Source of the DNA: Azoarcus sp.
Lineage (GTDB): Bacteria > Pseudomonadota > Gammaproteobacteria > Burkholderiales > Rhodocyclaceae
NCBI GenBank assembly: GCA_031546845.1
Contig: JAVBJT010000038.1
Location: 2,387 to 66,386 of the forward strand
DNA length: 64,000 nucleotides
Direction: 5' to 3'
A program made the position numbers and the translations under genes. Shown here one piece after another: positions 3,108 to 63,766 of this stretch (the stretch's first letter is position 1; each line of letters opens with the position of its first letter). A model generated the notes under the pieces. The model was not told where the DNA came from. It did not search any database and worked only from the letters and a program-made list of their open reading frames with translations.

Positions 3108-4375
3108 TATCGTTCTCCCCGCTCACGGTTGCGCATCAGATCGCGATTCCGCGGATCGGTACTCGTACCGCTGCTCGGCGGTGTGGACGCGCCATGTGCC
3201 TCCGGCGTCGGCAGGGCGATGGCGGAACCGCCTCCCGAAGCAGACGACTGAAGCAACTTGTCCAACGGCAAAAGCATCAAGTTACCGTTGCCCTTGGCGT
3301 CGATCATGACCTTCGAGGTATTAGACAGAACCTGCTGCATGGTGTCGATATACAGGCGCTCACGCGTCACTTCCGGGGCGCGCCGGTATTCGGTCAGCAC
3401 CTGATTGAAGCGGCTGGCTTCACCTTCGGCGTTGGCAACGATTTTCGCGCGATAGCCGCTGGCTTCTTCGAGAAGACGCGACGCGGTACCGCGCGCACGC
3501 GGGACAACCTCGTTGGCATACGCCTCGCCCTCGCTCTTTTGCCGTTCGCGATCCTGCCCGGCCTTCACCGCGTCGTCGAACGCGGCTTGCACCTGCTCCG
3601 GCGGCTGAGCGTTCTGCATCGTCACACGGCTGATCTGGATACCGGTTTCGTAACGGTCAAGAATCCGCTGCATCGACGCCAGCGCGTCCACGGCGATTTG
3701 CTCGCGCCCCTCGTACAACACGAAATCCATGCGGCTCTTGCCGACCAACTCGCGCATCGCGGTTTCCGCAACCTGCCCGACCGATTCGTCCGGATTACGG
3801 TTGTTGAATACGTATTTTTCCGGGCTGTTGAGCACATACTGCACGGCAAACTGGATGTTGATGATGTTCTCGTCATCGGTCAGCATTAACGATTCGCGCA
3901 ATAGCTTGTTCCGCTCCGAGCCGCGATAACCGACCTCCACCGTGCGTACGCCGGTGAAATCGACGATCTCATGGCTTTCCAGCGGGTAGGGCAAACGCCA
4001 ATGCAAGCCAGGCTCGGTCGTCTCGGCGAATTTGCCCAGGCGCAGCACGACGCCGCGCTGATTGGCATCGACGGTGTAAAAGCCGCTCGCGGCCCAGATC
4101 AGCAGGACCAGCACGATCAAAATACCGATGCCGCCACCGAACTGCTTGGACGAAAAACCCGGCAGATCCGGTCCACCGCCTTGCCGGCCGCCCCCGGAGC
4201 CGCCTTCGCGCCTCTGGCGTTTGCCGCCGAACAGTTCGGAAAGACGACGGTTGAGGTCTTGCCAGACTTCTTCCAGGTCGGGAGGACCTTGCTTGCCACC
4301 ACGGCCATTTTCGCCGCGGTCGCCCCGATCCCCCTTGTCGCCCTGACCACCCCAGCGCGGGTCGTTTAAAGACAT
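3107..4375 (-). CDS. hflK: HflK, SPFH/band-7 regulator of FtsH
   Basis: 422-aa ORF, Gly-rich N-terminus, TM helix, SPFH domain; hflX-hflK-hflC order. Confidence 0.9.
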   Translation of the reverse strand: MSLNDPRWGGQGDKGDRGDRGENGRGGKQGPPDLEEVWQDLNRRLSELFGGKRQRREGGSGGGRQGGGPDLPGFSSKQFGGGIGILIVLVLLIWAASGFYTVDANQRGVVLRLGKFAETTEPGLHWRLPYPLESHEIVDFTGVRTVEVGYRGSERNKLLRESLMLTDDENIINIQFAVQYVLNSPEKYVFNNRNPDESVGQVAETAMRELVGKSRMDFVLYEGREQIAVDALASMQRILDRYETGIQISRVTMQNAQPPEQVQAAFDDAVKAGQDRERQKSEGEAYANEVVPRARGTASRLLEEASGYRAKIVANAEGEASRFNQVLTEYRRAPEVTRERLYIDTMQQVLSNTSKVMIDAKGNGNLMLLPLDKLLQSSASGGGSAIALPTPEAHGASTPPSSGTSTDPRNRDLMRNRERGER

Positions 4376-4386
4376 GAGAACGCCTG

Positions 4387-5544
4387 TTATCCCTGTTGTA
4401 CTGGAAGTTTGTCCACAACATCCGGCATGCTGCCGGCATGGACGATCCGATGCGCTGTTTCGGCCAGCGCGCCTCGCAGAAGACCGAGCCCTTCGCCCGT
4501 TCTCGCGCTCAAAAAAACGCGTTTGATTCTATCACAGTCGCCCCTCTCGACCGCCGCCGCGGCCTGAGTCAAGTCGATCTTGTTCCAAATCATGATCTGC
4601 TCCACGTCCGCCGCGCCGATTTCGGCTAAAACCTGATTCACCGCTGCAATCTGCGCATTTCGATCCTCGCTGGCGGAATCGACCACATGCAACAGCACGT
4701 CGGCCTGCGCGGTTTCTTCCAGCGTGGCGCGAAACGCCGCCACCAAGGCATGCGGCAGATCGCGGATGAATCCGACTGTGTCGGACAGTACAACGTTCCC
4801 ACCCTCCACATAGAAGCGGCGCGAAGTCGTATCGAGCGTGGCGAAAAGCTGGTCGGCGGCATAGCTACCGGCCTTGGTCAGCGCATTGAACAGCGTCGAT
4901 TTACCCGCATTGGTATAGCCGACGAGGGAAACGGACAGCGCATCGCGCCGTTCACGTGCACGCCGCCGCACCCGCCGCTGCTTTTCCAGTTGGGTAAGAC
5001 GCGTCTTCAGCAGCTTGACGCGATTACCCAACAACCGGCGGTCGGTTTCAAGCTGGGTTTCGCCCGGCCCGCGCAGACCGATCCCGCCTTTTTGCCGCTC
5101 AAGGTGAGTCCAGCCGCGCACAAGGCGGGTCGACAAATGCTGAAGCTGCGCCAGTTCAACCTGCAACTTGCCTTCATGGCTGCGCGCGCGTAACGCGAAG
5201 ATGTCGAGAATCAACGCGGTGCGATCGATGACACGGCACGCCAACTCACGTTCGAGGTTGCGCTGCTGCCCTGGAGACAAGGTGTGATTGAAAATCACCA
5301 AGTCCGCATCGTGGACGCGCAGGGCCTCGCCGATCTCGGCAACCTTACCTCGGCCAGCAAACAGAGCCGGATCCGGCGCTGCGCGCCGGCCCTGTACAAC
5401 CGTCTGGACAACCGCGCCGGCACTGCTCGCAAGCAGTTCGAGTTCGGACAAGCATTCCGCAATGGCACCCTGGCCGAAATCCAACTGGACGAGTACCGCC
5501 CGCTCGCCGGTTTCGGGCCGCTCAAACATAGCGAACGGCCACAC
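4387..5544 (-). CDS. hflX: GTPase HflX
   Basis: 385-aa ORF with G-motifs (GYTNAGKST, DTVGF, NKID) and HflX N-terminal domain; downstream of hfq. Confidence 0.9.
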   Translation of the reverse strand: MWPFAMFERPETGERAVLVQLDFGQGAIAECLSELELLASSAGAVVQTVVQGRRAAPDPALFAGRGKVAEIGEALRVHDADLVIFNHTLSPGQQRNLERELACRVIDRTALILDIFALRARSHEGKLQVELAQLQHLSTRLVRGWTHLERQKGGIGLRGPGETQLETDRRLLGNRVKLLKTRLTQLEKQRRVRRRARERRDALSVSLVGYTNAGKSTLFNALTKAGSYAADQLFATLDTTSRRFYVEGGNVVLSDTVGFIRDLPHALVAAFRATLEETAQADVLLHVVDSASEDRNAQIAAVNQVLAEIGAADVEQIMIWNKIDLTQAAAAVERGDCDRIKRVFLSARTGEGLGLLRGALAETAHRIVHAGSMPDVVDKLPVQQG

Positions 5545-5574
5545 CCGGAACTAACCGCCGACGCACAACGGCAT

Positions 5575-5820
5575 TCAGTTTCCGCCCTCGCCATTTTCCT
5601 GCTGCTGGATCGCGATCGGCCGCGACGGCACTACGGTGGAAATGGCGTGCTTGTAGACCATTTGCGTCACGGTATTTTTCAGCAACACAACGTACTGATC
5701 GAAGGACTCGATCTGCCCCTGGAGTTTGATGCCATTCACAAGATAAATGGATACCGGAACATGCTCCCGGCGCAAGGTGTTCAGAAATGGGTCTTGTAAA
5801 AGTTGCCCTTTGTTGCTCAT
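5575..5820 (-). CDS. hfq: RNA chaperone Hfq
   Basis: 81-aa [50 protein letters not shown]... near-identical to canonical Hfq Sm fold. Confidence 0.95.
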
Positions 5821-5930
5821 GGTCGAACCTCGTTACTTACGTTGATGTGGATTAGGGATGTATCAAACTCTCTTCTGCATCGCACAACACAGTATCCGAC
5901 ACATACTGCGGCGCCTCGTTCCCATCATGC

Positions 5931-7259
5931 TCAAAGCTTGCTCGCATAAGGGTTGTGCGCGGTGCGAAACTGGATTCTCAGGGGCGTCCCCTGCAATTTG
6001 AACGCCTCCATGAAAGTACGTTCGAGAAAACGGACATACGCGGCGGGAATATCGTCCAGCGCGTTGCCATGTATCACGATGATCGGGGGATTTGTTCCCC
6101 CCTGGTGCGCATAGCGCAACTTGGGCCGGGCGGTGCCGTGGCGTGGCGGCGCTTGCTTGGCGACCGCGGCCTGCATCGTTCGCGTCAGCCGTGGCGTGGA
6201 CAGATTGGCCATCGCCGCAGCGTAGGCGGCATCGACCGATTTGAGCAGTGCTGCGATGCCCTCGGCTTTCAATGCGGAAATCTGATGCAGACGCGCGAAG
6301 GACAGAAAAGCCAACTTGCGCGTAATGTCTTCCTTCAAGCGCTGGCGGCGATAATCGTCCACCGCGTCCCACTTGTTGATCGCTAGCACCAAGGCACGTC
6401 CGGCATCGAGGATGAAGCCGGCGATATGGGCATCCTGCTCGGAAATATCCTGTGCGGCATCGAGCACCAACACGACCACGTTGGCCCCTTCGATGGCTTG
6501 CAGGGTCTTGATCACGGAAAATTTCTCGACCGCCTCGAAAACCTTGCCGCGCCGTCTCAATCCGGCGGTGTCGATCAGCGTGTAATGCTTTCCGCCACGC
6601 TCGAACGGAATCGAAATCGCATCGCGTGTCGTGCCCGGCAAATCGAACGCGATAACACGCTCCTCGCCAAGCAGGGTATTGACCAAGGTGGATTTACCTA
6701 CATTGGGCCGCCCGACGATCGCCACCTTGGGACCGGCATCGGCATCATCGGCCTCGTCCTCGTCGCGCGGGAATGGCGCCAGCACAAGCTCAACGAGTTG
6801 CTTCACGCCATCGCCGTGCGCGGCCGACACTGCCAGCGGATCACCCAGGCCAAGTGCATGAAAATCCGCCTCAACCATCGCGCGTTCGATGCCCTCGGAT
6901 TTATTCACGACCAGATAAACCGGCCGCCCCGCACGGCGCAGGCGCTCGGCAATCTGCTCATCGTGGGGCGTTCTTCCGGCGCGGCCATCGACCAGGAACA
7001 GCAACACATCGGCCTCGGCGATCGCCTGCTCGGCCTGCCGCGCCATCTCGTGCATGATTCCGTCCTTGGCAACGGGATCGAAGCCAGCGGTATCGACGAC
7101 AAGGTAGGGGCGGTCGCCAACACGGCCCAGGCCGTAATGCCGATCGCGGGTCAGTCCCGGCTGATCGGCGACAAGCGCATCGCGTGTCCTGGTGAGACGA
7201 TTGAACAAGGTCGACTTGCCGACATTGGGCCGCCCGACAAGAACGAGGGTAGGATTCAC
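5931..7259 (-). CDS. der: Ribosome-associated GTPase Der (EngA), tandem G domains + KH-like C-terminus
   Basis: 442-aa ORF with two GxPNVGKST P-loops (residues ~9 and ~185). Confidence 0.9.
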
Positions 7260-7276
7260 TTGCGCGTGCCTGTGTT

Positions 7277-8419
7277 TTAACGCGTTTCGAGTACGGCGAT
7301 TTCGCCGTCGCGGCTCTGTACCACAAAGCCATACCTGAAAGGCCGGGGGTCGGCTGTCACCGCGCTGCTGTCGATACGCAGCCGCGCGGCGAAAGCGCCA
7401 TCCTCGCGGCGCAGCAAATGCACATAGCCTTCGCTGTCACCCACGGCAACGTATTCACCCACGATCAGCGGCCGCGACACGACACGGCGCGCCAACGCAT
7501 CCTGCTTCCACACACTCGCGCCGCTATACACATCGAGCGCGCTCACCGCATCGCGCTCATCGGTAATGACGGCGTAGCGATTATCCCGATCCATGCCGGC
7601 GCTGCTGGAGAAGTCGCGCGACCATAAGGCACTGCCATTATTCACGTCGAAACAAGCAACCCGCCCCTGGTAGGTCACCGCGCACACCTCGCGGCGGCCA
7701 ATCACCGGTGTGCCGGCCACATCGGTAACACGTTCCAACTCGGTGGAGCCGCGCGGTAGCGATACCGACAATTCCCACAGCATGCCACCGTTCGATAGAT
7801 TGACGGCAACCAGCTTACCGCCTGGGAAACCCGCCAACGCGACGCCGCCTTCAAGCAGAACACCCGCGTAGCCATGCAAGCCCAGCGCGGGATTGTCGCG
7901 CCGGAAAACCCAACGGCGCGCGCCGCTCTTGGCATCGAACGCAACCAGGCGGTGATCCGCCCCGCGTACCACGACCAAATCGGCATTGACCGCCGGTGGC
8001 GCCAACACGCCGGTACCGACCGGCGCGCGCCAACGCTCGGTGCCATTGGTCGCGTCGTAAGCGATCACTTCACCGCCGGCTGTCGCCACCACGGCAAGCA
8101 CGCCGTCGCTACCGACACCGGCGGACAACTCCGTTTTGGCCGAAACGCGCCACACCGCGCGCCCATCCTCGAAACGGGCGACAGCGCCATCGTTCGCCGC
8201 GGCATATACGCTGTCACCAACCACCGCGGGGAAGAACACATAGGGGCCGGATTTACCGATATCGGCGGTCCATGCCGGCACCAACCCGGTCGACGGCTGG
8301 AAGTCGACCAGAGGGGTCGGCTTTGGCCCGTCGCTGGAAAACGGATTGAGCGACGAACACGCCGACGACAGCAAAGCGGCACCCAACAACGGCAATAAAC
8401 GGAAACGGGCGCGTCTCAT
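7277..8419 (-). CDS. bamB: Outer membrane protein assembly factor BamB (PQQ-repeat beta-propeller lipoprotein)
   Basis: 380-aa ORF, lipoprotein signal (LLSSACSS), repeated PQQ-like blades; conserved der-bamB-yfgM-hisS order. Confidence 0.8.
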
Positions 8420-51993: not shown

Positions 51994-52698
51994 ATGAATA
52001 CAAGCAATGCCGATCCCGCCGAATTGCAGAAATTCAGCGATCTGGCTCACCGCTGGTGGGATCCAACCTCCGAATTCAAACCCCTGCACGACATCAACCC
52101 ACTACGGCTCGATTGGATTGACGCCAGAACCCAACTCGCCGGCAAGCGCGCTCTGGACGTCGGCTGCGGCGGCGGCATTCTTTCCGAAAGCATGGCGGCG
52201 CGCGGAGCTTGCGTTACCGGCATCGATCTTGGCGAAAAACCGCTTGGCGTCGCCCGCCTCCACCTGCTTGAAAGTGGCCACGATGTCGATTACCGCCTGA
52301 CGAGCGCGGAAGCGTTCGCCGCCGAAAATCCCGCTTGCTTCGATGTCGTCACCTGCATGGAAATGCTTGAGCACGTTCCCGATCCCGCAAGCACAATCGC
52401 CGCGTGCGCGCGCCTGGTCAAACCCGGCGGAGATGTTTTCTTCTCCACCTTGAATCGCAACCTCAAAGCCTATCTGCTCGCCATCATCGGCGCCGAGTAC
52501 GTGCTTGAACTGCTTCCGCGCGGCACGCATGAATACGCGAAATTCATCAAGCCATCCGAACTAGCCTCCTACTGCCGCCAAGCCGGACTCGATCCGGTCG
52601 AGCTCACCGGCATGCATTACAACCCGTTCACCCAAACGTATTCCCTTCAGCCCGACACCAGCGTCAACTATCTTGTTCATGCCCGGATCGCAGCCTGA
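51994..52698 (+). CDS. ubiG: Ubiquinone biosynthesis O-methyltransferase UbiG
   Basis: 234-aa ORF, SAM motif [12 protein letters not shown], UbiG-type N- and C-termini. Confidence 0.9.
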
Positions 52699-52745
52699 AA
52701 TAAGCGGCCGGCATTGACCGGCACCTATTTCAGCGCACCATCGCA

Positions 52746-52791
52746 GGCGGACATAAAATGTCTTGACATTTTATGTCCGCCTACTTACATT
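52746..52791 (+). promoter_or_regulatory. Near-consensus sigma70 promoter (TTGACA-N17-TACATT) embedded in a perfect 17-bp-arm palindrome (candidate operator)
   Basis: ggcggacataaaatgtc-tt-gacattttatgtccgcc (52746-52781); -35 at 52763-52768 is the palindrome centre, -10 at 52786-52791; 40 bp upstream of DUF2170 gene. Confidence 0.5.
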
Positions 52792-52832
52792 GCCCATGTC
52801 GATAACCGACACATTCCTGAAAAGGGGAAACG

Positions 52833-53249
52833 ATGAAATCGCTGCAAGAAAAAATTGCGGGCCTGGATCTGTCGATAAGCATGCGGCTGAGCGGTGCAAC
52901 CGTGGATCTGCAGCCCATTCCGGGGTCGGTGCCGGTCATTCAGGTCGCCATTGGCGGGCGCGAAGAGTTGCCGATTTTCATCACCGCATCCGAGGCTCAA
53001 ATCCTCTGCATCTGCTACTTGTGGACCGATTCGGAAATCGCGCCGGACAAACGTATCGAGCTGCTGGAACTCCTGCTTGACCTCAACCTGTCGATTCCCT
53101 TGTCCTCGTTCGGCAGGGTGGATGGCCGCTACGTGCTGTTCGGCGCGCTCTCCCACGACGCCCGTATGGAAGACATTGCGCAGGATATCGTCGCACTGAG
53201 CGACAACGCGCTCGATGCGCTGGAAGCGCTTTCCGGATATCTCGCTTAA
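52833..53249 (+). CDS. DUF2170 family protein (YjfI-like)
   Basis: 138-aa ORF resembling E. coli YjfI in size/pattern, directly upstream of a PspA-family gene as in yjfI-yjfJ. Confidence 0.55.
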   Translation: MKSLQEKIAGLDLSISMRLSGATVDLQPIPGSVPVIQVAIGGREELPIFITASEAQILCICYLWTDSEIAPDKRIELLELLLDLNLSIPLSSFGRVDGRYVLFGALSHDARMEDIAQDIVALSDNALDALEALSGYLA

Positions 53250-53262
53250 TTAGGAGCCGAAC

Positions 53263-53970
53263 ATGAGTGTGATCGAAAAAATTCTGACTTTACTGCGCGG
53301 CAGTGCTCGCGAACTCGGCGACAGCCTGATCGACGCCAACGCCACGCGCATCTACGAGCAAGAAATCATCGACGCGCGTAATGCCATCCTGCAGGCCAAG
53401 AGCGAATTGACCGGCGTAATGGCCAAGGAAATGCAAAGCGCGCGCGAAATCGAACGCATCCGCGGTGAAATGCTGCGTTTCGAAGCGCTGGCCGTTGAAG
53501 CGCTGGACAAGGGTAAAGAGGCGCTCGCCGAAGAGGTCGCCGGCAAGGTTGCCGAAACGGAAGCCGCACTCGAAGAGCAAACACGCACCCACGCCAGTTA
53601 TGCACTGCAGGTAAGCAAACTGAAAGACTTGATCAAGGCGGCGGAAAACAAGGTGCGCGAACACGAGCGCGAAGTGGCGATGGCACGCACCACGGAAAAC
53701 GTTTACCGCGCTACCCGCTCAATTTCCGATAGCATCGGCGCGAGTGGCTCCAGGTTGGTCAGCGCGCGCGAATCGTTGGAACGCATCAAACGGCGCCATG
53801 AAGACCTCGCCGACCGCATGAGCGCGGCTGAAACGCTAGACAAGGAAATCGGCGTCAAAGCGCTGGAAACGAAGCTTGCCGAAGCAGGCATCGGCGCCGA
53901 CAGCGACCGCAAGCGGCGGGCGATGGAACGCATTCGCGCACGCCAGGCAGCGCCGCGGGACGAGGCATGA
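53263..53970 (+). CDS. PspA/IM30 (ESCRT-III-like) family protein, YjfJ-like
   Basis: 235-aa all-helical coiled-coil ORF with PspA-family N-terminus (MSVIEKILTLLRGSARELGDSLIDANATRIYEQEIIDARNAI). Confidence 0.75.
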   Translation: MSVIEKILTLLRGSARELGDSLIDANATRIYEQEIIDARNAILQAKSELTGVMAKEMQSAREIERIRGEMLRFEALAVEALDKGKEALAEEVAGKVAETEAALEEQTRTHASYALQVSKLKDLIKAAENKVREHEREVAMARTTENVYRATRSISDSIGASGSRLVSARESLERIKRRHEDLADRMSAAETLDKEIGVKALETKLAEAGIGADSDRKRRAMERIRARQAAPRDEA

Positions 53971-54287
53971 CAACACGCAAGCCAGCGCGTTGGCAAGCGT
54001 CGGACGAAGCGATTCGCGCGGTGCAAGTCGCTTTCGATGTGGAAGGCGCGGTGCTTGAAGCAGTCCGCCGCGCCGCCTTCGAAAACAACCTATCCACCTC
54101 GGATCAGATCCGTAGCGTACTTGGCCTTGCCGTGACGCGACGACCAAAGCGCCCGCGCCTCACCGTTTCATTGACGCCGGCCGACTATGAAACGCTGGCC
54201 GCGCGTTACGCTCTGGCGGAAACGGACCGATTAGCCATCAAGGAACACGTCACCGACGAATTGATCCGCTTTGCACGCACAACCTGA
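53967..54287 (+). CDS. Small protein with two ribbon-helix-helix-like half-domains
   Basis: ATGA overlap with pspA-like stop; segments AIRAVQVAFDVEGAVLEAVRRAA...SDQIRSVLGL and RPRLTVSLTPADYETLAARYALAETDRLAIKEHV fit beta-alpha-alpha RHH pattern. Confidence 0.4.
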   Translation: MTTRKPARWQASDEAIRAVQVAFDVEGAVLEAVRRAAFENNLSTSDQIRSVLGLAVTRRPKRPRLTVSLTPADYETLAARYALAETDRLAIKEHVTDELIRFARTT

Positions 54288-54318
54288 AACAGCCTGATAA
54301 CAACAAGGGAGGGCTTTC

Positions 54319-54948
54319 ATGGGCGATCTTGCCGCCGCCGCACTCAGCTATCCGACGGCAATTTACACCGCGCTGCTTGGCGCGGTGGTTTTCTACTGGT
54401 TGCTGGCACTGATCGGCCTGGTCGATTTCGACCATGGCGCGTCCGACTTCGATCTCGATCTGGACGGCGATGTTGGCGATATCGGCACCATCGCCGCCTA
54501 CCTCGTTGCTTTCGGACTCGGTGGCGTACCCTTTTCGATCGTGGTCAGCCTGCTCGTGCTGATCGGATGGACGATATGCTGCCTGTTCGCCATGTGGCTA
54601 TTGCCGCTTGTACCCACTTCCGTGCTGCGGCTGGTGGCGGGCACGGCCGGATTGCTCGGCGCCTTCGCGCTCGCCTTACCACTGACCGCCGCGGCGGTAC
54701 GCCCGCTGCGCAAGCTTTTCGTGACCCACGGCGCAATCTCCAACGCCGCGCTGGTTGGCCAAACTTGCCGCATTCTTACCCGCACCGTGGATGAAAAATT
54801 CGGCCGAGCCGAAGTTTCCGGCCACGGCGCCAGCTATAACATCCGCGTTTATGCCGATACGCCCAATTCCCTTACTCGCGGCTCGACCGCGATCATCGCT
54901 GACTACGATCCAAGCGGTGCGCGCTACCACGTGCGCGCCGAGGAATAA
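54319..54948 (+). CDS. NfeD-like/YqiJ-like inner-membrane protein (TM region + C-terminal OB-fold)
   Basis: 209 aa (same as E. coli YqiJ); 4 TM helices then soluble beta-rich C-terminus (GQTCRILTRTVDEKFGRAEVSGHGASYNIRVYAD...) immediately upstream of flotillin gene. Confidence 0.6.
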   Translation: MGDLAAAALSYPTAIYTALLGAVVFYWLLALIGLVDFDHGASDFDLDLDGDVGDIGTIAAYLVAFGLGGVPFSIVVSLLVLIGWTICCLFAMWLLPLVPTSVLRLVAGTAGLLGAFALALPLTAAAVRPLRKLFVTHGAISNAALVGQTCRILTRTVDEKFGRAEVSGHGASYNIRVYADTPNSLTRGSTAIIADYDPSGARYHVRAEE

Positions 54949-55027
54949 ACGATAACCAACGATAACCGAACCGGGTAACGGTCTATTTTTCCGCCGGGCC
55001 CGCCCGGCTAAATCTGAAGAGGATTTC

Positions 55028-57133
55028 ATGGAACCCATCTACATCTCCATCGGCCTACTGGCCGTTCTGCTGTTCGTGCTGTTCACGATGTTCGCCAAGT
55101 TCTACCGCAAGGTGGAACAAGGCTACGCGATGATCGTCAACACCCTGCGCAGCGAACCGGAGGTGACTTTCACCGGGCGCATGGTGTACCCGATCATCCA
55201 CAAGGCCGAGATGATGGATATCGCGCTCAAGACAGTGGAAATCGACCGCACCGGCAACGAAGGCCTGATCTGCCAGGACAACATCCGCGCCGACATCAAG
55301 GTGAAATTCTTCGTCCGCGTCAACAAGACCGCCGAGGACGTGCTCAAGGTTGCCCAAGGCATCGGCTGTCAGCGCGCCTCCAATCACGAAACGCTGGAAG
55401 AACTGTTTTCGGCCAAATTCTCCGAAGCGCTGAAAACGGTCGGCAAGGCCATGGATTTCGTCGAGCTATATCAGGCGCGCGACCGCTTCCGCGACGAAAT
55501 CATCCGCCAGATCGGTGACGATCTGTCCGGTTACGTGCTCGAAGACGCGGCCATCGATTACCTCGAACAGACGCCGCTTGCCAAACTCGACCCGAGCAAC
55601 ATCCTCGACGCCCAGGGGATCAAGAAGATCACCGAACTGACCGCGCAGGAAAACGTTCGCACCAACGAACTGCGCCGCAACGAGGAAATGCAGATCAAGA
55701 AAAAAGACGTCGAAACCAAGGAAACCCTGCTTGAGCTCGAACGTCAGCAGGCCGACGCCGAGGCGCGTCAGCAACGCGAAATCGCTTCCGTGCGCGCACG
55801 TGAGGAAGCCGAGGCCTCACGCGTCCGCTCCGAAGAGCATACCAAGGCCGAGCTCGCCCGCCTGCAGTCCGAACAATCCATCACCGTGCAACAGGAAAAC
55901 GTGCTGCGCGAAAAGGAAGTCGCCGAAAACAACCGCAAACGCGCCGTCGCGATCGAAGAAGAAAAAGTCATCCGCGCACGCGAACTGGAAATAGTCGACC
56001 GCGAAAAGGAAGTCACCCTGCAACAGATCGACAAGGAAAAAGCGGTCGAAGTGCAGAAGAAGGCCATTGCCGATGTCATCCGCGAACGCATCGTGGTCGA
56101 ACGCACCGTGGCCGAGCAGGAAGAAGCGATCAAAGAACTGCGCGTTGTCGCCGAAGCCGACCGTACGAAGAAATCCACCATCATCCTCGCCGAAGGCCAC
56201 GCCGAAGAAAAGATGGTGATGGAAGTCAAATCCGCCGAAGCGCAGGAACGCCGCGCCCGCCACAAGGCGACCGAGGAACTGACGCTGGCCGAAGCCAAGC
56301 TCAAGGTCGCCGAAAAAGACGCCGAGGCCAAAAAACGCGAAGCGGAAGGCATGGAAGCCATCGCCGCCGCGCCGGGGTTCGCCGCAGCCAAGGTCATGCT
56401 GGTCAACGCCGACGCGAAGGAAAAACAAGGCATGGTCGATGCCAAGGTGAAAATCGCCGAGGCCGAAGCCGTCGCCAAATACGGTCAGGCCGAAGCGGAT
56501 GCCTTGCATGCCCGCATGGAAGCCGAAGCGCAAGGCCAGGAAAAGCTCGGCCTTGCCAATGTCCAGGTACGCACTGCCGATGCCGACGCCACGGTGAAGA
56601 CCGGCTTGGCTGAAGCACAGGTCATCGAGGCGCGTTTCCAGGCCGAAGCCAAGGGGCTGCGGGAAAAATTCGAGGCAATGGCGGCGATGAGCCCGGATAC
56701 CCGCGCGCACGAGGAATTCCGTATGCGGCTTGGCAACGCCCACATCGAAACGCTGAAAACCATCGACGCCCAAGCCGGCATTGCCCGCGAGCAGGCCGAG
56801 GTGCTTGGCACCGCGCTCGGCAACGCCAAGATCGACATCGTCGGCGGCCAGGGCGATTACTTCGAGCGCTTCGTCAATGCGCTCGCCGTCGGCAAGGGTA
56901 TCGACGGCGCCATCGCCAAGAGCAACACCCTACAGATCGCGCTGAAAGACCACCTCACCGGAGAACGCGACCTCGTCGGCGACCTGCAAGGCCTCGTCGG
57001 CGCGCTTGGCAGTTCCACCGGCGAGCTGCAGAACCTCGGCGTCACCGCGTTGCTGGCCAAAATCGCGCGCGATGGCGATGAGACACAGAAAAACGCGCTG
57101 CATACCTTGCTCGACAGCCATCGCAAAAACTGA
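55028..57133 (+). CDS. Flotillin/SPFH (band-7) family protein, YqiK-like, with very long Glu/Ala/Lys-rich coiled-coil (701 aa)
   Basis: N-terminal TM helix, SPFH domain, ~400 aa EA-rich helical repeats. Confidence 0.8.
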   Translation: MEPIYISIGLLAVLLFVLFTMFAKFYRKVEQGYAMIVNTLRSEPEVTFTGRMVYPIIHKAEMMDIALKTVEIDRTGNEGLICQDNIRADIKVKFFVRVNKTAEDVLKVAQGIGCQRASNHETLEELFSAKFSEALKTVGKAMDFVELYQARDRFRDEIIRQIGDDLSGYVLEDAAIDYLEQTPLAKLDPSNILDAQGIKKITELTAQENVRTNELRRNEEMQIKKKDVETKETLLELERQQADAEARQQREIASVRAREEAEASRVRSEEHTKAELARLQSEQSITVQQENVLREKEVAENNRKRAVAIEEEKVIRARELEIVDREKEVTLQQIDKEKAVEVQKKAIADVIRERIVVERTVAEQEEAIKELRVVAEADRTKKSTIILAEGHAEEKMVMEVKSAEAQERRARHKATEELTLAEAKLKVAEKDAEAKKREAEGMEAIAAAPGFAAAKVMLVNADAKEKQGMVDAKVKIAEAEAVAKYGQAEADALHARMEAEAQGQEKLGLANVQVRTADADATVKTGLAEAQVIEARFQAEAKGLREKFEAMAAMSPDTRAHEEFRMRLGNAHIETLKTIDAQAGIAREQAEVLGTALGNAKIDIVGGQGDYFERFVNALAVGKGIDGAIAKSNTLQIALKDHLTGERDLVGDLQGLVGALGSSTGELQNLGVTALLAKIARDGDETQKNALHTLLDSHRKN

Positions 57134-57147
57134 AGAGCAACACGACA

Positions 57148-57711
57148 ATGCGCAAACTTCACTGTACCTGCAGCGCCCATGCGGAACTCGACGGCCATCT
57201 CCTCGCACCCGGCCTTACCGCACAACGCTGCCCGACCTGCGGTAACGTCCTGCTCGCGCTCGACGATTACCGCCGCTGGCGGGAGCGCCAACCCGCCAGT
57301 GGCACAGTGACAACCCCATCGGCGAACGGCGCGAAGCCCGAATCCGGAGCAGCCGCGCAAGCGCGCCATTGCCCCGCCTGCCAGCGCTTGATGAGCCGGC
57401 ACCGTAGCGGCACCGCGCCGGACTTCCACCTCGACCGGTGCAGTCCGTGCCAACTGGTATGGCTGGACGACGGTGAATGGCAGCAACTCGAAGAAGCCGG
57501 CCTTGCCACCCAGCTCGACATCGTGCTGACCGATGCCTGGCAACAGCGCATTCAAGCAGCCGAAATGCAGGCGGGCCGTGACGCCGCGCTGCGCGCCCGG
57601 CTCGGCGATGAAACCTTTGCCGAAGTCCGTCGCCTGCAATCCTGGCTGGATGACCACCCGCAGCGCGCCGCAATCCTTGCCGAACTCAACGTCAAGCGCC
57701 GGGCGGGCTGA
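57148..57711 (+). CDS. Double zinc-ribbon protein (zf-TFIIB-like ribbons)
   Basis: Two CxxC...CxxC units (CPTCGNVLL...; CPACQRLMSRH...CSPCQLVWLDDGEWQQLEE) matching C-P-x-C-G / C-x-x-C-x-G-x-W-L-D pattern. Confidence 0.55.
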   Translation: MRKLHCTCSAHAELDGHLLAPGLTAQRCPTCGNVLLALDDYRRWRERQPASGTVTTPSANGAKPESGAAAQARHCPACQRLMSRHRSGTAPDFHLDRCSPCQLVWLDDGEWQQLEEAGLATQLDIVLTDAWQQRIQAAEMQAGRDAALRARLGDETFAEVRRLQSWLDDHPQRAAILAELNVKRRAG

Positions 57712-57770
57712 TCGCCCCTCCCCGACTTAGACGCCACTACTCCGACACCGCTACGCCGACACGGAAGATC

Positions 57771-60700
57771 ATGTCCGATCCGACCTTTCTCGCAGCCGCC
57801 AATCCCACCGAAACCTTGACGGCCGACAGCGGCAGCTACGAGCTGCTGAAAAAGCGGCTTACCGACCGCGGCGCCACGCTGCAACGGAAAACGCGCAGCC
57901 TCAACGACGCGCGGCTGAAGGAGTTCGGCCGTGCCGAACAATCGCTGGTACTGCGCACCCGCGCCCGCACCGAAAACAACTGCATCGCCCGCGATCTGGT
58001 GTATATCGGCGATCTGCTGCTGTTCGGCTACAACGTCTTCATCGGCCTGCGCAAGGAAATCACCGTCGGCGACGTATTTGCCCTCTACCGCTTCAAGGCC
58101 CAGGGCGACGCCGAGGAACTCGAAGCCGTGCCCACCGCGGGCACCTTCCTTGACGATCCGCGCTTCAATGCCGACTTCCGCGAACTGTACGCCTACTACA
58201 AGCAAGCGAATCTGATTCAGTTGCGCGTACATCAGCAAAAACTGCTGGCCGCCTTCCAGATCGGCGAGCAGGCGCACGACATGCGCGTGTTTCGCTGGGA
58301 GTTGGAAGCCGGCGGCAACATCCGCTACATCGACAATCGCGGCGAGCGCGACATTGCGCTGCCGCCGACACACGATTTCGAATGGACCGTCACCACACGC
58401 GATAACCACGTCGGCGGGAAATATCCCCACATCAATATTCTCGACACCATTTTCGTCGAAACCACGGGTGGCGACCTCACGGTCAAGATTGAGAACAACA
58501 CCGAAAGCGGACTCGGCATTTACGCCGAACCGGTGGAAGATCGCAACCAATCGCTCGCCGACGCGGAAATCGCCTACGCCCGCCTCGGCGCGCTGATCCT
58601 GCTGAAAATCCGTCCCTACCGCGAGAAGGACGAGCGCTTCCTTGTTTTCAACGCGCGCACCCGCCAGGTTGTGCGCATCGACGCCATCGGGCGCTCCTGC
58701 GTACAGTTACCGGAAGACCACGGCATCATCTTTCCCGGCGGTTATTACCTGCAATCCGGCGAACACAAGCGTTTCGACCTTCCCGTCGAAACAGCAGTCG
58801 GCGCGCTGCGCTTCAAGCGCATGCTGCGCTCGCCCAACGGCGAGGACGTGCTTTATGTTTTCTACCAACCGGGCACGGGTCTTTATGCGCTGTTCTCCTA
58901 CAACCTGATCGAAAAAACGCTGAGCGCGCCCATCCTCTGCAACGGCTACGCCCGCTTCGACGACGGCCGATTCCTCGTCTTCCAGGCGGAAGGCCCGGAA
59001 CCGACGCGCAACCACCCGATGCAGTTGTGGCAAACGCCTTTCGCCAGCGACGACTATGCCGCCGACACGAATGGCGCCCAGGGGTTTTTCGCCCGCATCG
59101 GCAACCCCGAACTGGTGCGCGGCATCTCTGAGCTAACCGCCATCGCCCGCGCAGTCGACGAACAAACGCCCACGCGCGCCGCATACGAAGCGCTGATCCA
59201 GCACTGTGAGCGAGCGCTCGACGCCTATTTCTGGCTCGGTGCAGCCGAAACCGACAGCCTGGAAACCGACGTGCGCGCCATTGCCGACGGTGCTCACGCC
59301 ACGCTGAACGAGTTCGACAAAGTCGAAAGCATCCGCCGCGACACCGCGCGCACACTGGCCGATGCCGAAGCGCGCCAGCGCGCTCTTCTCACCGACATCG
59401 CCAGCATGTTGTGGCAGCAGCCAGACGATTTCGTCCGTGCGCTCGGCCTGCTGCGCGAGCAGCGCGGCCGCCTGAAAACACTGGAAGAACTGCGCTACGC
59501 CGATCTGCCCGGCATTGCCACGATGGACCAAGCCCTGTCCACCGAACAGCAACGCATCGGCGAACGCGCCGTGCGTTTCCTGGCCGAAGAGCAAGCCTTC
59601 GACGGCCAACGCCGCGAGCTCGCGCGCATTGCCTCCGCCTTGCCCGCCACCGCAACCAGCACCGACATCGCCACCCTGCTGGCCGAACTCGACCGTATCG
59701 CGGCCGGGCTCGACCTGCTCACCGAGCAGCTCGGCAGCTTGCCCGGTGGGGACGCGGTGGTGCGCACCCGCATCCTCGATAACATTTCGGCCATTTACGC
59801 CGACGTCAACCGATTGCGCGCCGAAGCCCGCAACCGGCGCAAATCACTCGGCGCCACGGAGGCCACGGCCGAATTCGGCGCGCAATTCAAACTCTTCGGC
59901 CAGGCGGTGGAAAACGCGCTGGAACTGGCCGACACACCGGAAAAATGCGACGACGCGCTGACCCGATTGCTCGCCCAGCTTGAAGAACTCGAAGGCCGCT
60001 TCGCCGAACACGAAAACTTCGCCGACGACATCGCAGCCAAGCGCGAATCGGTGTACGAAGCCCTCTCGGCTCGCCGTCAAAGCCTGCTCGAAGCCCGCCA
60101 GCGCCGCGCCCAGGCGCTTACCGACGCAGCAGGCCGTATCCTCGACGGCATTCCACGCCGCATCGCCACATTCGGCGAAATCGAACAAGTACACACCTAT
60201 TTCGCCGCCGATGCGCTCGTCGCCAAACTGCGCAAACAAATCGACGACCTACGCGCGCTCGGCGCCGCGGTCGCCGCCGACGATCTCGACACGCGTCTCA
60301 AAACCGCGCGCGATCAAGCGCTGCGCACCGTGCGCGACCGCCATGAACTGGTCGCCGACGACGGGCAAACGCTGCGCCTGGGGCGCCATACCTTCACCAT
60401 CAACCGGCAATCGCTCGATCTCACGCTGGTGCCCAAGGACAGCTCACTCGCCTTCCATCTCAGCGGCACCGACTACTTCTCACCGGTCGAAGACACGCGC
60501 CTCGATACACTCAAACCCTACTGGGAACAGGCGCTGGTATCGGAAAGCGCGGAACTGTATCGCGCAGAGTATCTTGCCGGCGCACTGCTCGACGCGGTGC
60601 AATCCGGCTCCGGCCCCCTCTCCTGGAACGATCTGCTCGCCCTGTGCGCAGGTAATGGCAACGATCCAGCGCACGGCCGCCGCCTGCTCGATGCCATCCG

Positions 60701-63002
60701 CGAATTCAGCGCCACGCGCTACCAGGAGGGATACCAAAAAGGCGTCCACGATCACGACGCTGTGCATCTCCTCAGCGCGCTGACGACGATGCAGGCCGCA
60801 GCCGGCCTGCTCGTCGACGCCCCCGAAGCGCGCGCCCTCGCCCTCCTCTACTGGCAATATAGCGACGACGCCGAACATGAGGCATTGCAACGCCGAGCCC
60901 GCTCCGCACTGCAGTTGTTTGAACAGTTTGCCGCGCCCGATTGTCTGCAACGCCTCGAACGCGACTGTGCCGAACAACTCACAGCCTTCGCGCCGGGCTT
61001 CGGCTTCACCGCCGCCGACGACACATTGGTCCCCCAGGCCGCGCATTACCTGGTACGCCAACTGGCCTCACCACGCGGCGCCGAAGCCTGGGTCGTCTCC
61101 GGCGCCGGCGCCGATCTTGCTCAAGCCTTGCTGCGCCAACTTGAGCACCGTGGGCAACTCGCGGAATGGCAGCGCGATCTCGACGCCGCGCCATCGGCCG
61201 AACGCTGGCGGCTGGCGCTCGACTGGGTCACCGCTTTCACTACCGCCGATCCGGCCAACCGGTCCGCCCTCCCCTGGATTGCCGACGCCGCCACCCAACT
61301 TGCCGTGCCACTAGAGCGCGCACGGGTCAATGCCAATCTCGACCGCACAATCGACGGCTTGCTCGGTGAACACCCGCGTATCGCCAATGGATCGGCAACA
61401 CTCAACCTGAACGACTTCCGCCGCCGCTATCTGCATCACCACAACGTCGTCGTCCCCGCCTTCGAACGCCTGCAAGCGCTACGCCTGGATATCGTCGCAA
61501 CCGAAAAGCATCGCCTGCGCCTCGGCCAATTCCAAGCCAAACCGCTGTCGTCCTTCGTCCGTAACCGCCTGCTCGACGAAGTCTATCTGCCCATCATCGG
61601 CGACAACCTCGCCAAGCAGATCGGCGCTGCCGGCGACGCCAACCGTACCGACCGCATGGGTCTGCTGCTACTCATCTCGCCACCGGGGTACGGCAAGACT
61701 ACATTGATGGAATACGTCGCCGATCGCCTCGGCCTCATTTTCGTGCGCATCAACTGCCCCACGCTCGGCCACGACACCACCACGCTCGACCCCGCCAGCG
61801 CCCATCACAGCGCCGCGCGCCAGGAATTGGAAAAACTCAATCTCGGCCTGACGATGGGCAACAACGTCATGCTGTATCTGGACGACATCCAGCACACCAG
61901 CCCCGAATTCCTGCAAAAATTCATCGCGCTGGCTGACGGCACCCGTCGCATCGAAGCAGTTCTCGACGGCGAATCCAGAACCTGCGATCTACGCGGCAAA
62001 CGCTTTGCCATCGTCATGGCTGGCAATCCGTATACCGAATCCGGCGACGTATTCAAAATCCCCGACATGCTCGCCAACCGCGCCGATATCTACAACCTTG
62101 GCGACGTACTCTCGGGGCGCGAAAAACTGTTTGCCCTGTCCTACATCGAGAACAGCCTTACCGCTAATCCGCTGCTACAACCATTGGCCGCGCGCGACCC
62201 GAAAGACGTCCATCTGCTGGTACGCATGGCCGAAGGCGAAGAGGTGGCCGCGAGCGACTTCAGCCACGGCTACAGCAGCGCCGAACTGACCGAACTCAGC
62301 ACGCTGATTCAGCGCCTGTTCCGCGCCCGCGACCTGCTGCTGAAGGTCAACCTCGCCTACATCGACTCCGCCGCGCAACATGACGCCTATCGCACGGAAC
62401 CGCCATTCAAGCTACAAGGCAGCTACCGCAACATGACCAAACTCGCCGCGCGCATCACCCCGCTGATGCACGACGACGAACTCGACGCCCTGCTGCGCGA
62501 CCACTATCGCGGCGAAGCACAAACCCTCACGAATGGCGCCGAGGAAAACTTGCTCAAGCTCGCCGAACTGCTCGGTAGCCAGAATGCCGAGGAAGCGGCG
62601 CGCTGGACTGAGATCCGTACCGACTTCGTGCGCAACCGTAAGCTCGGTGGCAGCGACACCGACGGCGCCACACGCATCTCCGCCACGTTGCTCGACGTCG
62701 CTCAAGCGATCGATAAACTGAAAACAGATACTTCCCTTGATCACAGCCTGCGCGCGGGCCTCGCCGAACTCACCGCGACACTGGCCAAACTACAGCCGAC
62801 AATCGAAATCGGCGCGCCCGACACCAGCGGCTTTGCCGATACATTGCGTGAAATGCGTGAGAATTACGACAAAGTACTGCTCCCACTGGTCACCGCAACC
62901 TATCGCAAAATGCGCCTGGATCACTCGCTGTGGGAAGAAATGAAGCGGCTCTCCACGCTCACGGCGCGTCTGGATGAACACTTGTTTTCAGAGGAAAAAT
63001 AA
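57771..63002 (+). CDS. Giant 1743-aa multidomain protein with C-terminal AAA+ ATPase module (Walker A SPPGYGKTT, Walker B VMLYLDD, sensor-1 AIVMAGNPY)
   Basis: Single uninterrupted ORF; N-terminal ~650 aa beta-rich, central ~700 aa helical/coiled-coil, AAA+ core at residues ~1285-1450, ~290-aa helical tail. Confidence 0.6.
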   Translation: MSDPTFLAAANPTETLTADSGSYELLKKRLTDRGATLQRKTRSLNDARLKEFGRAEQSLVLRTRARTENNCIARDLVYIGDLLLFGYNVFIGLRKEITVGDVFALYRFKAQGDAEELEAVPTAGTFLDDPRFNADFRELYAYYKQANLIQLRVHQQKLLAAFQIGEQAHDMRVFRWELEAGGNIRYIDNRGERDIALPPTHDFEWTVTTRDNHVGGKYPHINILDTIFVETTGGDLTVKIENNTESGLGIYAEPVEDRNQSLADAEIAYARLGALILLKIRPYREKDERFLVFNARTRQVVRIDAIGRSCVQLPEDHGIIFPGGYYLQSGEHKRFDLPVETAVGALRFKRMLRSPNGEDVLYVFYQPGTGLYALFSYNLIEKTLSAPILCNGYARFDDGRFLVFQAEGPEPTRNHPMQLWQTPFASDDYAADTNGAQGFFARIGNPELVRGISELTAIARAVDEQTPTRAAYEALIQHCERALDAYFWLGAAETDSLETDVRAIADGAHATLNEFDKVESIRRDTARTLADAEARQRALLTDIASMLWQQPDDFVRALGLLREQRGRLKTLEELRYADLPGIATMDQALSTEQQRIGERAVRFLAEEQAFDGQRRELARIASALPATATSTDIATLLAELDRIAAGLDLLTEQLGSLPGGDAVVRTRILDNISAIYADVNRLRAEARNRRKSLGATEATAEFGAQFKLFGQAVENALELADTPEKCDDALTRLLAQLEELEGRFAEHENFADDIAAKRESVYEALSARRQSLLEARQRRAQALTDAAGRILDGIPRRIATFGEIEQVHTYFAADALVAKLRKQIDDLRALGAAVAADDLDTRLKTARDQALRTVRDRHELVADDGQTLRLGRHTFTINRQSLDLTLVPKDSSLAFHLSGTDYFSPVEDTRLDTLKPYWEQALVSESAELYRAEYLAGALLDAVQSGSGPLSWNDLLALCAGNGNDPAHGRRLLDAIREFSATRYQEGYQKGVHDHDAVHLLSALTTMQAAAGLLVDAPEARALALLYWQYSDDAEHEALQRRARSALQLFEQFAAPDCLQRLERDCAEQLTAFAPGFGFTAADDTLVPQAAHYLVRQLASPRGAEAWVVSGAGADLAQALLRQLEHRGQLAEWQRDLDAAPSAERWRLALDWVTAFTTADPANRSALPWIADAATQLAVPLERARVNANLDRTIDGLLGEHPRIANGSATLNLNDFRRRYLHHHNVVVPAFERLQALRLDIVATEKHRLRLGQFQAKPLSSFVRNRLLDEVYLPIIGDNLAKQIGAAGDANRTDRMGLLLLISPPGYGKTTLMEYVADRLGLIFVRINCPTLGHDTTTLDPASAHHSAARQELEKLNLGLTMGNNVMLYLDDIQHTSPEFLQKFIALADGTRRIEAVLDGESRTCDLRGKRFAIVMAGNPYTESGDVFKIPDMLANRADIYNLGDVLSGREKLFALSYIENSLTANPLLQPLAARDPKDVHLLVRMAEGEEVAASDFSHGYSSAELTELSTLIQRLFRARDLLLKVNLAYIDSAAQHDAYRTEPPFKLQGSYRNMTKLAARITPLMHDDELDALLRDHYRGEAQTLTNGAEENLLKLAELLGSQNAEEAARWTEIRTDFVRNRKLGGSDTDGATRISATLLDVAQAIDKLKTDTSLDHSLRAGLAELTATLAKLQPTIEIGAPDTSGFADTLREMRENYDKVLLPLVTATYRKMRLDHSLWEEMKRLSTLTARLDEHLFSEEK

Positions 63003-63040: not shown

Positions 63041-63766
63041 TCAGAAACGCAGGTCGAGTTTCAGTTCAACATCCGGGCTGCGCTCGCCGTTTTCAAGATT
63101 CATGTCCCACCCCATGCGATAGTGCAGTGTGGCGCCATCGCGAATGAAGTAGCGGCCGCTCAGTTGGGGCGTCATCTGGTCGATGCTGACCTGGGGACGC
63201 GAGCCATCTCGGCGGAGTGCGCCTTGCCCATTCAATCCCAGTGAAACCGAGTTGTTCAGCGCATAGGATGTGGTGAGCGTGTAGTTTGCGCCGAGCCCGG
63301 GACCATCTGTATCGGCGAGCTTTCCGAGCGACATGTCCGCATCGAGGGCGAGCCCGCCCTGTTGCATTCTGAAGGTCGGCTTCAACGCGAGCCCCCAGGC
63401 CGATGCGTCCCGCTGTCGGCTAGCATGCACGCCCAGATCGAACTTACCCGGCAGTATGCCGTCGAGCCCGTCGACACGCAGTTTCTGGTCGACGGTCAGC
63501 CGGCTGAACTGCGGCGCGCTGCCTTCCTGCGAGGTTGTGGCGAGGTCGAAGCGCGTCCGGCCGATATCGCCAGGCGGCAGTTCAAGATGCATCCCCAGTT
63601 CGTCCGTGCCGCCAGACTCTCCGGAACTACCCGCGCGCAGGCTGAGCCGCGGATCATCGTCATACGTTGAAAGCAGGCGCGGAGACAACTGATCGGCCGC
63701 GAACACAGGTGCGACAAACGCAAAACCAATCAGCAATGGAATGAAAATATGGAAAATCGGCCACAT
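63041..63766 (-). CDS. Hypothetical outer-membrane beta-barrel protein (signal peptide, C-terminal Phe)
   Basis: 241-aa ORF; signal peptide MWPIFHIFIPLLIGFAFVAPVFAA; alternating amphipathic strands; terminal ...LKLDLRF. Confidence 0.5.
   Translation of the reverse strand: MWPIFHIFIPLLIGFAFVAPVFAADQLSPRLLSTYDDDPRLSLRAGSSGESGGTDELGMHLELPPGDIGRTRFDLATTSQEGSAPQFSRLTVDQKLRVDGLDGILPGKFDLGVHASRQRDASAWGLALKPTFRMQQGGLALDADMSLGKLADTDGPGLGANYTLTTSYALNNSVSLGLNGQGALRRDGSRPQVSIDQMTPQLSGRYFIRDGATLHYRMGWDMNLENGERSPDVELKLDLRF

Follow-up and report, generated by a model that had tools for sequence, protein, structure and literature searches.

Operons that encode a PspA-type protein together with a flotillin and an AAA+ ATPase form a published class. 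Ravi et al. (mSystems 2024, preprint 2020, PMC11237479) described it as a CesT/Tir protein with PspA, a transmembrane (TM) band-7 flotillin, a YqiJ/YuaF protein and a novel AAA+ protein; DUF2170/YjfI was recognized as a CesT/Tir member, an HKD phospholipase D (PLD) is sometimes present, and abbreviated flotillin-YqiJ(-AAA+) operons are more widely distributed. ESCRT-like, ATP-dependent membrane and assembly dynamics were proposed for the class (PMC11237479). A homologous operon has been studied experimentally in Pseudomonas aeruginosa, where the bac cluster (PA3732-PA3729) has biofilm, swarming, rhamnolipid and virulence phenotypes and its PspA-like protein is osmotically induced (Mace, 2008, PMC2587700). 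There, bacABCDEF (PA3732-PA3727, or PA14_16140-16200) is one six-gene transcript by reverse transcription PCR, under negative control involving BacA: a bacA mutant overproduces BacB to BacF 6 to 13.5-fold, and a crystal structure of BacA exists (PMC10948618). PA3728 is listed as ‘ATPase’ (PMC8190622). Here we compare with these systems an operon of seven genes (g1 to g7, 52833-63002, + strand) in a window of Azoarcus DNA, the window being the whole 64-kb stretch that was analysed. An earlier note on this DNA had suggested that the module could be an undescribed system, which it is not. The core design of chaperone, PspA, membrane protein, flotillin and giant ATPase is already published, and because the central interpretation overlaps with published comparative genomics (PMC11237479) and experiments exist for the homologous bac operon (PMC2587700, PMC10948618), this is not a new kind of system. 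Judged by sequence comparison, the window operon is a betaproteobacterial variant of the class, distinguished from the Pseudomonas operon by a predicted tandem ribbon-helix-helix (RHH) autoregulator with its operator, a zinc-ribbon gene, a sigma-70-type promoter and the lack of a PLD gene.

The seven open reading frames (ORFs), which the earlier note had described as a packed, co-directional array downstream of ubiG, were all recovered at the same positions in an ORF map of the window. The first, g1 (52833-53249, 138 aa), encodes a putative chaperone of the DUF2170, or YjfI/BacA-like, type with a CesT/Tir fold, and g2 (53263-53970, 235 aa) a PspA/IM30 protein of the YjfJ type. They are followed by g3 (53967-54287, 106 aa), a single-chain tandem RHH protein and predicted autorepressor, and g4 (54319-54948, 209 aa), a probable YqiJ/YuaF (NfeD-like) inner-membrane protein that has three hydrophobic stretches and ends in a soluble domain. 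The flotillin gene g5 (55028-57133, 701 aa) is of the YqiK type, its product combining a TM segment at the N-terminus, an SPFH/band-7 domain and an extended coiled coil rich in Ala and Glu. The last two genes encode a soluble, accessory zinc-ribbon protein (g6, 57148-57711, 187 aa) and a giant soluble ATPase with DUF3686, DUF7902 and AAA+ domains (g7, 57771-63002, 1743 aa). Gaps between successive genes are 13, -4, 31, 79, 14 and 59 nt, the negative value being the ATGA by which the start of g3 overlaps the stop of g2. Hydrophobic segments are confined to g4 (three) and the N-terminus of g5 (one), with none in g1 to g3, g6 or g7.

The components that define the class were recognized, g4 as a YqiJ/YuaF-like protein with weaker support than the others. 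The g1 product matches DUF2170 in Pfam (PF09938, 97.6 bits), the DUF2170 crystal structure 8q8o (E=2e-8) and E. coli YjfI (E=4e-10). It is followed after the 13-nt gap by the PspA_IM30 gene g2 (PF04012, 104 bits), whose product is 28% identical to E. coli YjfJ (E=6e-17). For g5 alone, Pfam returned Flot at 17 bits, short of the threshold (27); when 29 orthologues were combined into a profile, this aligned with E. coli YqiK over 416 columns (hhalign probability 99.9, E=5.7e-34), and orthologues have Band_7 matches in Pfam, so that g5 has the features of a membrane-anchored flotillin with a coiled coil. The earlier PspA and flotillin calls thus held under hidden Markov model (HMM) searches. In g7, the N-terminal DUF3686 covers aa 37-487 (nt 57879-59231, 659 bits in Pfam) and DUF7902 aa 608-692 (nt 59592-59846, 84.5 bits); a long helical region leads from there to the AAA+ core at about aa 1296-1445 (nt 61656-62105), where Pfam finds an AAA P-loop, as expected from the earlier description of a 1743-aa protein with a C-terminal AAA+ domain. 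With g4 taken as the YqiJ-like protein, the five-component architecture is identical to that of Ravi et al., and both the abbreviated form and the optional HKD phospholipase D were recovered among related loci. The main text of that study, which is purely comparative, mentions no RHH regulator, operator or zinc-ribbon gene for this operon group.

The bac operon has the same gene order as the window: BacA is a DUF2170 protein, BacB is PspA-like, BacC has TM segments, BacD is a flotillin-like protein of ~76 kDa and BacE is a large ATPase. Unlike bac, the window operon has g3 and g6 as extra genes and no downstream PLD-type sixth gene, and no PLD homologue was found by tblastn anywhere in the 64 kb, in the BacF position or elsewhere. 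Since PLD is an optional feature, its absence does not exclude membership of the class. The g1 product also lacks the ~65-aa N-terminal extension of BacA, and against the NCBIfam BacA equivalog NF050185 it reaches 45.7 bits (cutoff 300), over profile positions 84-202 only. A sigma-54 site was proposed for bac, whereas the window promoter appears sigma-70-like and is combined with an operator; reading the 134-nt region upstream of g1 revealed no good GG-N10-GC sigma-54 (-24/-12) element. Four gammaproteobacterial loci from genomes and metagenomes (L098, L105, L145 and L074) begin with a gene whose product exceeds the cutoff of the BacA equivalog (323-348 bits), and the L105 BacA matches 8q8o at E=3e-52. 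These loci read BacA-PspA-YqiJ-like-flotillin-DUF3686 giant, with PLD following in two. Because BacA-type loci carry the DUF3686 giant in fifth place, BacE is presumably a DUF3686 ATPase.

Conservation of the neighbourhood was assessed in the 80 best-matching genome loci and the 80 best-matching metagenome loci, plus four distant spot checks; the window proteins served to build iterated HMMs, with which the loci were searched, and PLD was counted by plain tblastn. In 124 of the 130 loci (95%) with at least 3.6 kb of upstream sequence, the giant gene is immediately preceded, on its own strand, by a YqiJ-like gene and a flotillin gene. DUF2170 and PspA are also present in 70 of 114 loci (61%) with at least 6.2 kb upstream (53/71 genomes, 16/42 metagenome loci). 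No PspA gene is nearby in 44 of the 114, nor in 26 of the 42 metagenome loci, which are the more diverse. Of the 62 loci with g3, 61 also have PspA, and so do 45 of the 47 loci (of 114) with g6; PLD follows the giant gene in 42 of 134. The four distant trios were confirmed by HMM (E 1e-19 to 1e-264): Natronoglycomyces (Actinobacteria) has a 212-aa protein, a Band_7 protein and the giant; Lachnospiraceae (Firmicutes) a 211-aa protein, a 692-aa flotillin and the giant; a third contig has the YqiJ-like/flotillin/giant trio with PspA 6 kb away; and Flavobacterium tegetincola (Bacteroidota) has CesT_Tir_1 and PspA in addition to the trio. The fixed core is therefore the YqiJ-like g4, the flotillin g5 and the DUF3686-AAA+ protein g7; DUF2170-PspA (g1-g2) is a facultative front module, and g3 travels with it. 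The earlier note had staked its interpretation on conserved linkage of the giant ATPase to PspA, flotillin and NfeD/YqiJ genes, and same-strand linkage was indeed found, with four phyla represented. Because the ATPase is accompanied by flotillin/YqiJ in 95% of loci and by PspA in 61%, and because the trio occurs in other phyla, it seems to be primarily a flotillin partner rather than a dedicated Vps4 for PspA.

The closest relative, L004 (an Azoarcus metagenome-assembled genome, MAG; 91% identity), is flanked by ubiG like the window; elsewhere a LysR gene or a xanthine permease gene adjoins the operon, and since flanking genes differ between genera, the unit behaves as a cassette. At L009, another Azoarcus MAG (7763-8149, 2552-4270), the giant gene is detached from flotillin/YqiJ and stands beside a PIN-domain (VapC-like) ORF, and ORFs near it look Cas-related by eye; this layout may reflect rearrangement or mis-assembly.

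Homologous genes are arranged differently in E. coli. There, YqiK, YjfJ and YjfI are homologues of g5, g2 and g1, as YqiJ probably is of g4, and the separate loci that the earlier note had ascribed to yqiJK and yjfIJ were located at 3.19 Mb and 4.41 Mb, 1.2 Mb apart; no DUF3686 ATPase gene follows yqiK, and yjfIJ is joined to polyamine-related genes. In B. subtilis, the SPFH protein YdjI brings PspA to the membrane and is required for this (PMC8581546). Because the pspA-ydjGHI operon encodes PspA together with an SPFH protein, it provides a functional precedent for recruitment of PspA by SPFH proteins; Ravi et al. count zinc-ribbon-containing partners (YdjG) among its products as well. However, it encodes no giant AAA+ ATPase, DUF2170 chaperone or YqiJ-like protein, and YdjI lacks a membrane anchor of its own (PMC8581546).

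With more than 6050 matching proteins, the g7 family is large; for its first 700 aa, clustering at 50% identity gives 860 representatives. Its AAA+ motifs are invariant in 18 sequences down to 32% identity, with the Walker A motif PPGYGKTT, the Walker B motif LYLDDIQH and the motif GNPYTESG...PDMLANRAD. In all 101 sampled family members, the PF00004 match is limited to positions 1-72 of 131, and that of AAA_5 spans positions 2-127 of 139. Against the PDB, the profile of the core aligned only with short stretches (~35-70 residues) surrounding Walker A, the proteins matched being Rix7/NVL/p97, midasin, ClpE and RuvB, and phmmer found no relative of g7 among PDB sequences. An AlphaFold2 model of the C-terminal 563 aa, built from a 6-sequence alignment, is unreliable (predicted local distance difference test, pLDDT, 49). 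The protein has no protease domain and no hydrophobic segment. A literature search for ‘DUF3686’ returned no papers, and searches for BacE or a link between YqiK and an ATPase returned nothing beyond the papers cited here. Ankyrin repeats are associated with the family in two cases: they are fused N-terminally to the DUF3686-AAA+ body in P0426 (1876 aa), and the trio that is most distant among those examined has ankyrin-repeat genes upstream (L175, 1-3978).

Upstream of g1, a predicted promoter/operator occupies 52745-52791 (+ strand). The palindrome reported at the 5′ end of the array proved to be a perfect inverted repeat with 18-nt arms (52745-52762 and 52765-52782), within which lie two 13-bp palindromes, GACATnnnATGTC (GACAT-N3-ATGTC), at 52750-52762 and 52765-52777, spaced by 15 nt. 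The downstream copy forms the putative -35 hexamer TTGACA (52763-52768), and a -10 hexamer, TACATT (52786-52791), follows after a 17-nt spacer. The motif has exactly two matches in the 64 kb, against 0.02 expected, and 107 in 3.2 Mb of related loci, against ~3 expected, nearly all just upstream of these operons. A sigma-70 scan of 12 kb found only the palindromic site; since its count of 2 equals the chance expectation of 2.2, the scan alone is no evidence, and the evidence for the predicted promoter site is its conservation in 65 related loci.

The association of this motif with g3 was counted over non-redundant loci with a readable region upstream of DUF2170, taking motifs within 250 nt. It is present upstream of DUF2170 in all 65 loci that encode g3, compared with none of the 10 DUF2170-PspA loci without g3 (Fisher p=1.2e-12). 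Among the 65, one copy occurs in 37, two in 27 (at 15-nt spacing in 19) and three in 1; one copy creates TTGACA in every case, and TAnnnT lies 16-18 nt downstream in 61. Other arrangements were also seen. At L137 (6564-7106) and L080 (6448-6999), which are of gammaproteobacterial type, a gene for a rhomboid-like membrane protein separates PspA from the YqiJ-like gene; these loci have neither DUF2170 nor g3, but upstream of PspA the -10 element is flanked by two GACATnnnATGTC operators. At L144 (~5500-7900), DUF2170-PspA-g3-g6 diverges from YqiJ-flotillin-giant, with the operator in the common intergenic region, and at L128 and L132 (~6350-7200) only a g6-like zinc-ribbon gene is divergent, adjoining the operator.

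The g3 product contains two RHH-like sequence repeats, in agreement with the RHH-like ORF of the earlier note, and is predicted to form two beta-alpha-alpha units in one chain, paired to a two-stranded sheet as in the RHH fold. It has no Pfam match itself; orthologues have weak RHH matches, and the family, of ~2600 proteins, has no Pfam model, some members being labelled ‘RHH CopG domain’ by UniRef. The best structural matches are the DNA-binding proteins TraY, Arc and AvtR. F-plasmid TraY, archaeal-virus AvtR and engineered single-chain Arc likewise have two beta-alpha-alpha units per chain, but identity to g3 is only 14-20%, and g3 constitutes a family of its own, encoded within a PspA operon rather than on a plasmid or virus. 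Taken with the co-occurrence of gene and motif, this suggests that g3 probably binds GACAT-N3-ATGTC and is the candidate repressor of the operon, acting by occluding the -35 region. Both g3 and the palindromic operator look new, neither being described in the literature searched.

From these comparisons we infer that the window probably encodes a self-contained, autoregulated membrane-maintenance (envelope-stress) operon of the bac/CesT-PspA-flotillin-YqiJ-AAA+ class. As the basis of a mechanism, PspA polymers remodel membranes, and the negative control of the single bac transcript involves BacA (PMC10948618 for bac). Together with g4, the membrane-anchored flotillin g5 would form a scaffold at the inner membrane, on its cytoplasmic side, and g7 would dock onto this scaffold via its DUF3686 and coiled-coil regions; the hydrophobic segments, which g4 and g5 carry and g7 does not, are in line with this arrangement. 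With its single AAA+ ring, g7 might use ATP to assemble, disassemble or remodel the scaffold. The g1 chaperone would keep PspA soluble, and PspA, delivered to the scaffold as by YdjI in B. subtilis, could seal or reshape damaged membrane. The g6 product may be an adaptor, by analogy with the zinc-ribbon products of pspA-ydj in B. subtilis. Until stress occurs, g3 would keep the promoter shut by covering the -35 element; the ATGA overlap couples its translational start to the PspA stop, and PspA availability might therefore, speculatively, feed back on transcription, linking PspA and g3 levels.

A bolder proposal, which is possible and should be treated as tentative, is that g7 represents the first dedicated ATP-driven machine for assembling or disassembling flotillin (SPFH) scaffolds. 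It would be conserved in Proteobacteria, Firmicutes and Actinobacteria alike, PspA being a plug-in effector that seals membranes, and the betaproteobacterial unit would be switched by a new single-chain tandem-RHH repressor that binds GACAT-N3-ATGTC over the -35 element. A precedent for an SPFH scaffold combined with an AAA+ machine at the inner membrane is HflK/C-FtsH, in which an SPFH cage encloses an AAA+ protease. Unlike FtsH, a classic AAA protease anchored in the membrane, g7 is a soluble protein that lacks a protease domain and shows no relationship to FtsH beyond the P-loop. For bacterial flotillins and for PspA, a relative of ESCRT-III, the operon class offers a candidate energy-consuming partner and bears on the wider question of how both are assembled, positioned and recycled; on the linkage data the constant partner of the ATPase is flotillin/YqiJ, not PspA. 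In the betaproteobacterial variant, the small predicted repressor and its 13-bp operator offer a genetic handle on induction conditions and regulon membership.

Several points weigh against this interpretation. Walker B of g7 (61875-61898, aa 1369-1376) has Asp-Asp in place of the usual Asp-Glu throughout the family, which makes its hydrolysis properties uncertain. Its AAA+ clade is not discriminated, since hhalign comparisons with E. coli FtsH, RavA, ClpX, Lon, RuvB, PspF and McrB were equally local. The class AAA+ protein was reported to have a coiled coil and a beta-propeller (PMC11237479), so that the DUF3686 propeller is an assignment from the literature. Four loci (L080, L137, L128 and L132) have the operator and no g3 in the 25 kb examined, and the association between g3 and the operator is partly phylogenetic, most g3 loci being betaproteobacterial. 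The sampling of loci was also biased, as it consisted of the best matches of two collections and the spot checks.

Other explanations can be set against the linkage and domain evidence. The earlier note had suggested a dedicated AAA+ machine for PspA, by which g7 would be a bacterial Vps4 analogue, the co-encoded PspA polymer its dedicated substrate and the flotillin a mere platform. An ESCRT-III-superfamily PspA is indeed encoded with an AAA+ ATPase, in the window as in 61% of related loci, so that ATP-driven polymer remodelling is conceivable. The half of the P-loop domain around Walker A matches classic-clade AAA proteins (PF00004 in all 101 members, Rix7/NVL/p97 in the PDB), and Ravi et al. 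drew the same ESCRT-III/Vps4 parallel for PspA-AAA+ associations (PMC11237479). This reading is nevertheless unlikely, although PspA could be supplied from elsewhere in the genome. Coupling of the ATPase to PspA is not obligate: PspA is missing from ~40% of loci (~60% in metagenomes) and from the trios of Actinobacteria and Firmicutes, while flotillin/YqiJ is missing in only 6 of 130, so that linkage follows flotillin instead. Unlike Vps4, g7 has no MIT domain detected in a Pfam scan at E<=0.01, is ~4 times larger and has DUF3686 and DUF7902 domains, and it is AAA_5 rather than PF00004 that covers its whole core. That g7 is a ‘DNA repair ATPase’ adjoining membrane genes by chance is hardly credible. 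The idea comes from database names only, thousands of relatives being so named by NCBI and DUF3686 being called ‘ATPase involved in DNA repair’ in Pfam; against it stand the same-strand adjacency to flotillin/YqiJ in 95% of loci across four phyla and the failure to find a DNA-repair domain or neighbour. The RuvB_N and ruvB matches of g7 do not extend beyond the P-loop and score 17 bits, where the cutoffs are 27 to 299; the label is probably misleading.

On the regulatory side, the operator might instead be bound by another regulator, in trans or in the form of g6, with g3 as an antitoxin-like or adaptor protein. The four loci with an operator and no g3 would fit such an arrangement, as would the divergent g6-like gene beside the operator at L128 and L132 and the name ‘transcription factor zinc-finger’ of the g6 Pfam family. 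We consider this improbable, given the 65/65 versus 0/10 association of operator and g3 and the DNA-binding RHH fold of the latter, and many operator loci have no g6 (e.g., L001, L007, L020, L024, L026, L035, L041, L045, L052 and L072). An envelope-targeted anti-phage or other conflict system, the alternative that the earlier note had offered, is still less probable. Defence systems often combine large P-loop ATPases, membrane proteins and phospholipase D genes; PLD follows the giant gene in 42 loci, and at L009 the giant gene is beside PIN-toxin and Cas-like genes. However, PADLOC 2.0 gave no significant match for the seven proteins (best E=0.001, BrxC coiled coil against PspA, and E=0.0068, IetA P-loop). 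The flank is a housekeeping gene, ubiG, with no mobile-element signature seen, and in P. aeruginosa the homologous operon affects biofilm, rhamnolipids and virulence and is osmotically induced (PMC2587700). The membrane-maintenance operon remains the preferred reading.

The remaining components were assigned with differing support. For g4, which has no Pfam match itself, the earlier NfeD/YqiJ-like call has weaker support: YqiJ_N matches occur in 7 of 28 orthologues (NfeD in 2), there are the three hydrophobic stretches, its profile aligned with E. coli YqiJ at hhalign probability 60 (E=8.5e-5), and the top PDB match, B. subtilis YuaF, was non-significant (E=0.73). No match to g5 was found among PDB sequences by phmmer or profile. 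The g6 product belongs to Zn_ribbon_TFIIB (PF13453, 30 bits) and has two CxxC...CxxC ribbons, in agreement with the double zinc ribbon of the earlier note; it also contains VWLDxGEW and is helical at its C-terminus. A small ORF of ~79-84 aa, absent from the window, follows either the flotillin gene, ahead of the zinc-ribbon gene, or the giant gene in about a dozen loci (L003, 9171-9410; L011, L013, L026, L071).

The surroundings of the operon show even GC content and no sign of a foreign island. Downstream of g7, a convergent 241-aa ORF (63041-63766, - strand) carries at its N-terminus a hydrophobic segment that resembles a signal peptide; nothing in Pfam or NCBIfam matches it, no homologue adjoins the operon in any of 163 related loci, and it is apparently unrelated to the module. 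Rfam found no RNA elements. The top-ranked + strand terminator-like hairpin (54366-54387; 9-bp stem with 7 GC pairs and a T-rich tail) was rejected as an internal terminator because it lies within the g4 coding sequence for the first TM segment and the g4-g5-g7 linkage is conserved; it is probably incidental. Upstream, ubiG (51994-52698; TIGR01983, 274 bits) is separated from g1 by a 134-nt spacer. Directly after its stop codon, at 52695-52733, lies a second, imperfect inverted repeat with 19-nt arms (74% complementary), within which there is a terminator-like match on the - strand (52722-52707); this repeat may be the ubiG terminator, insulating the operon.

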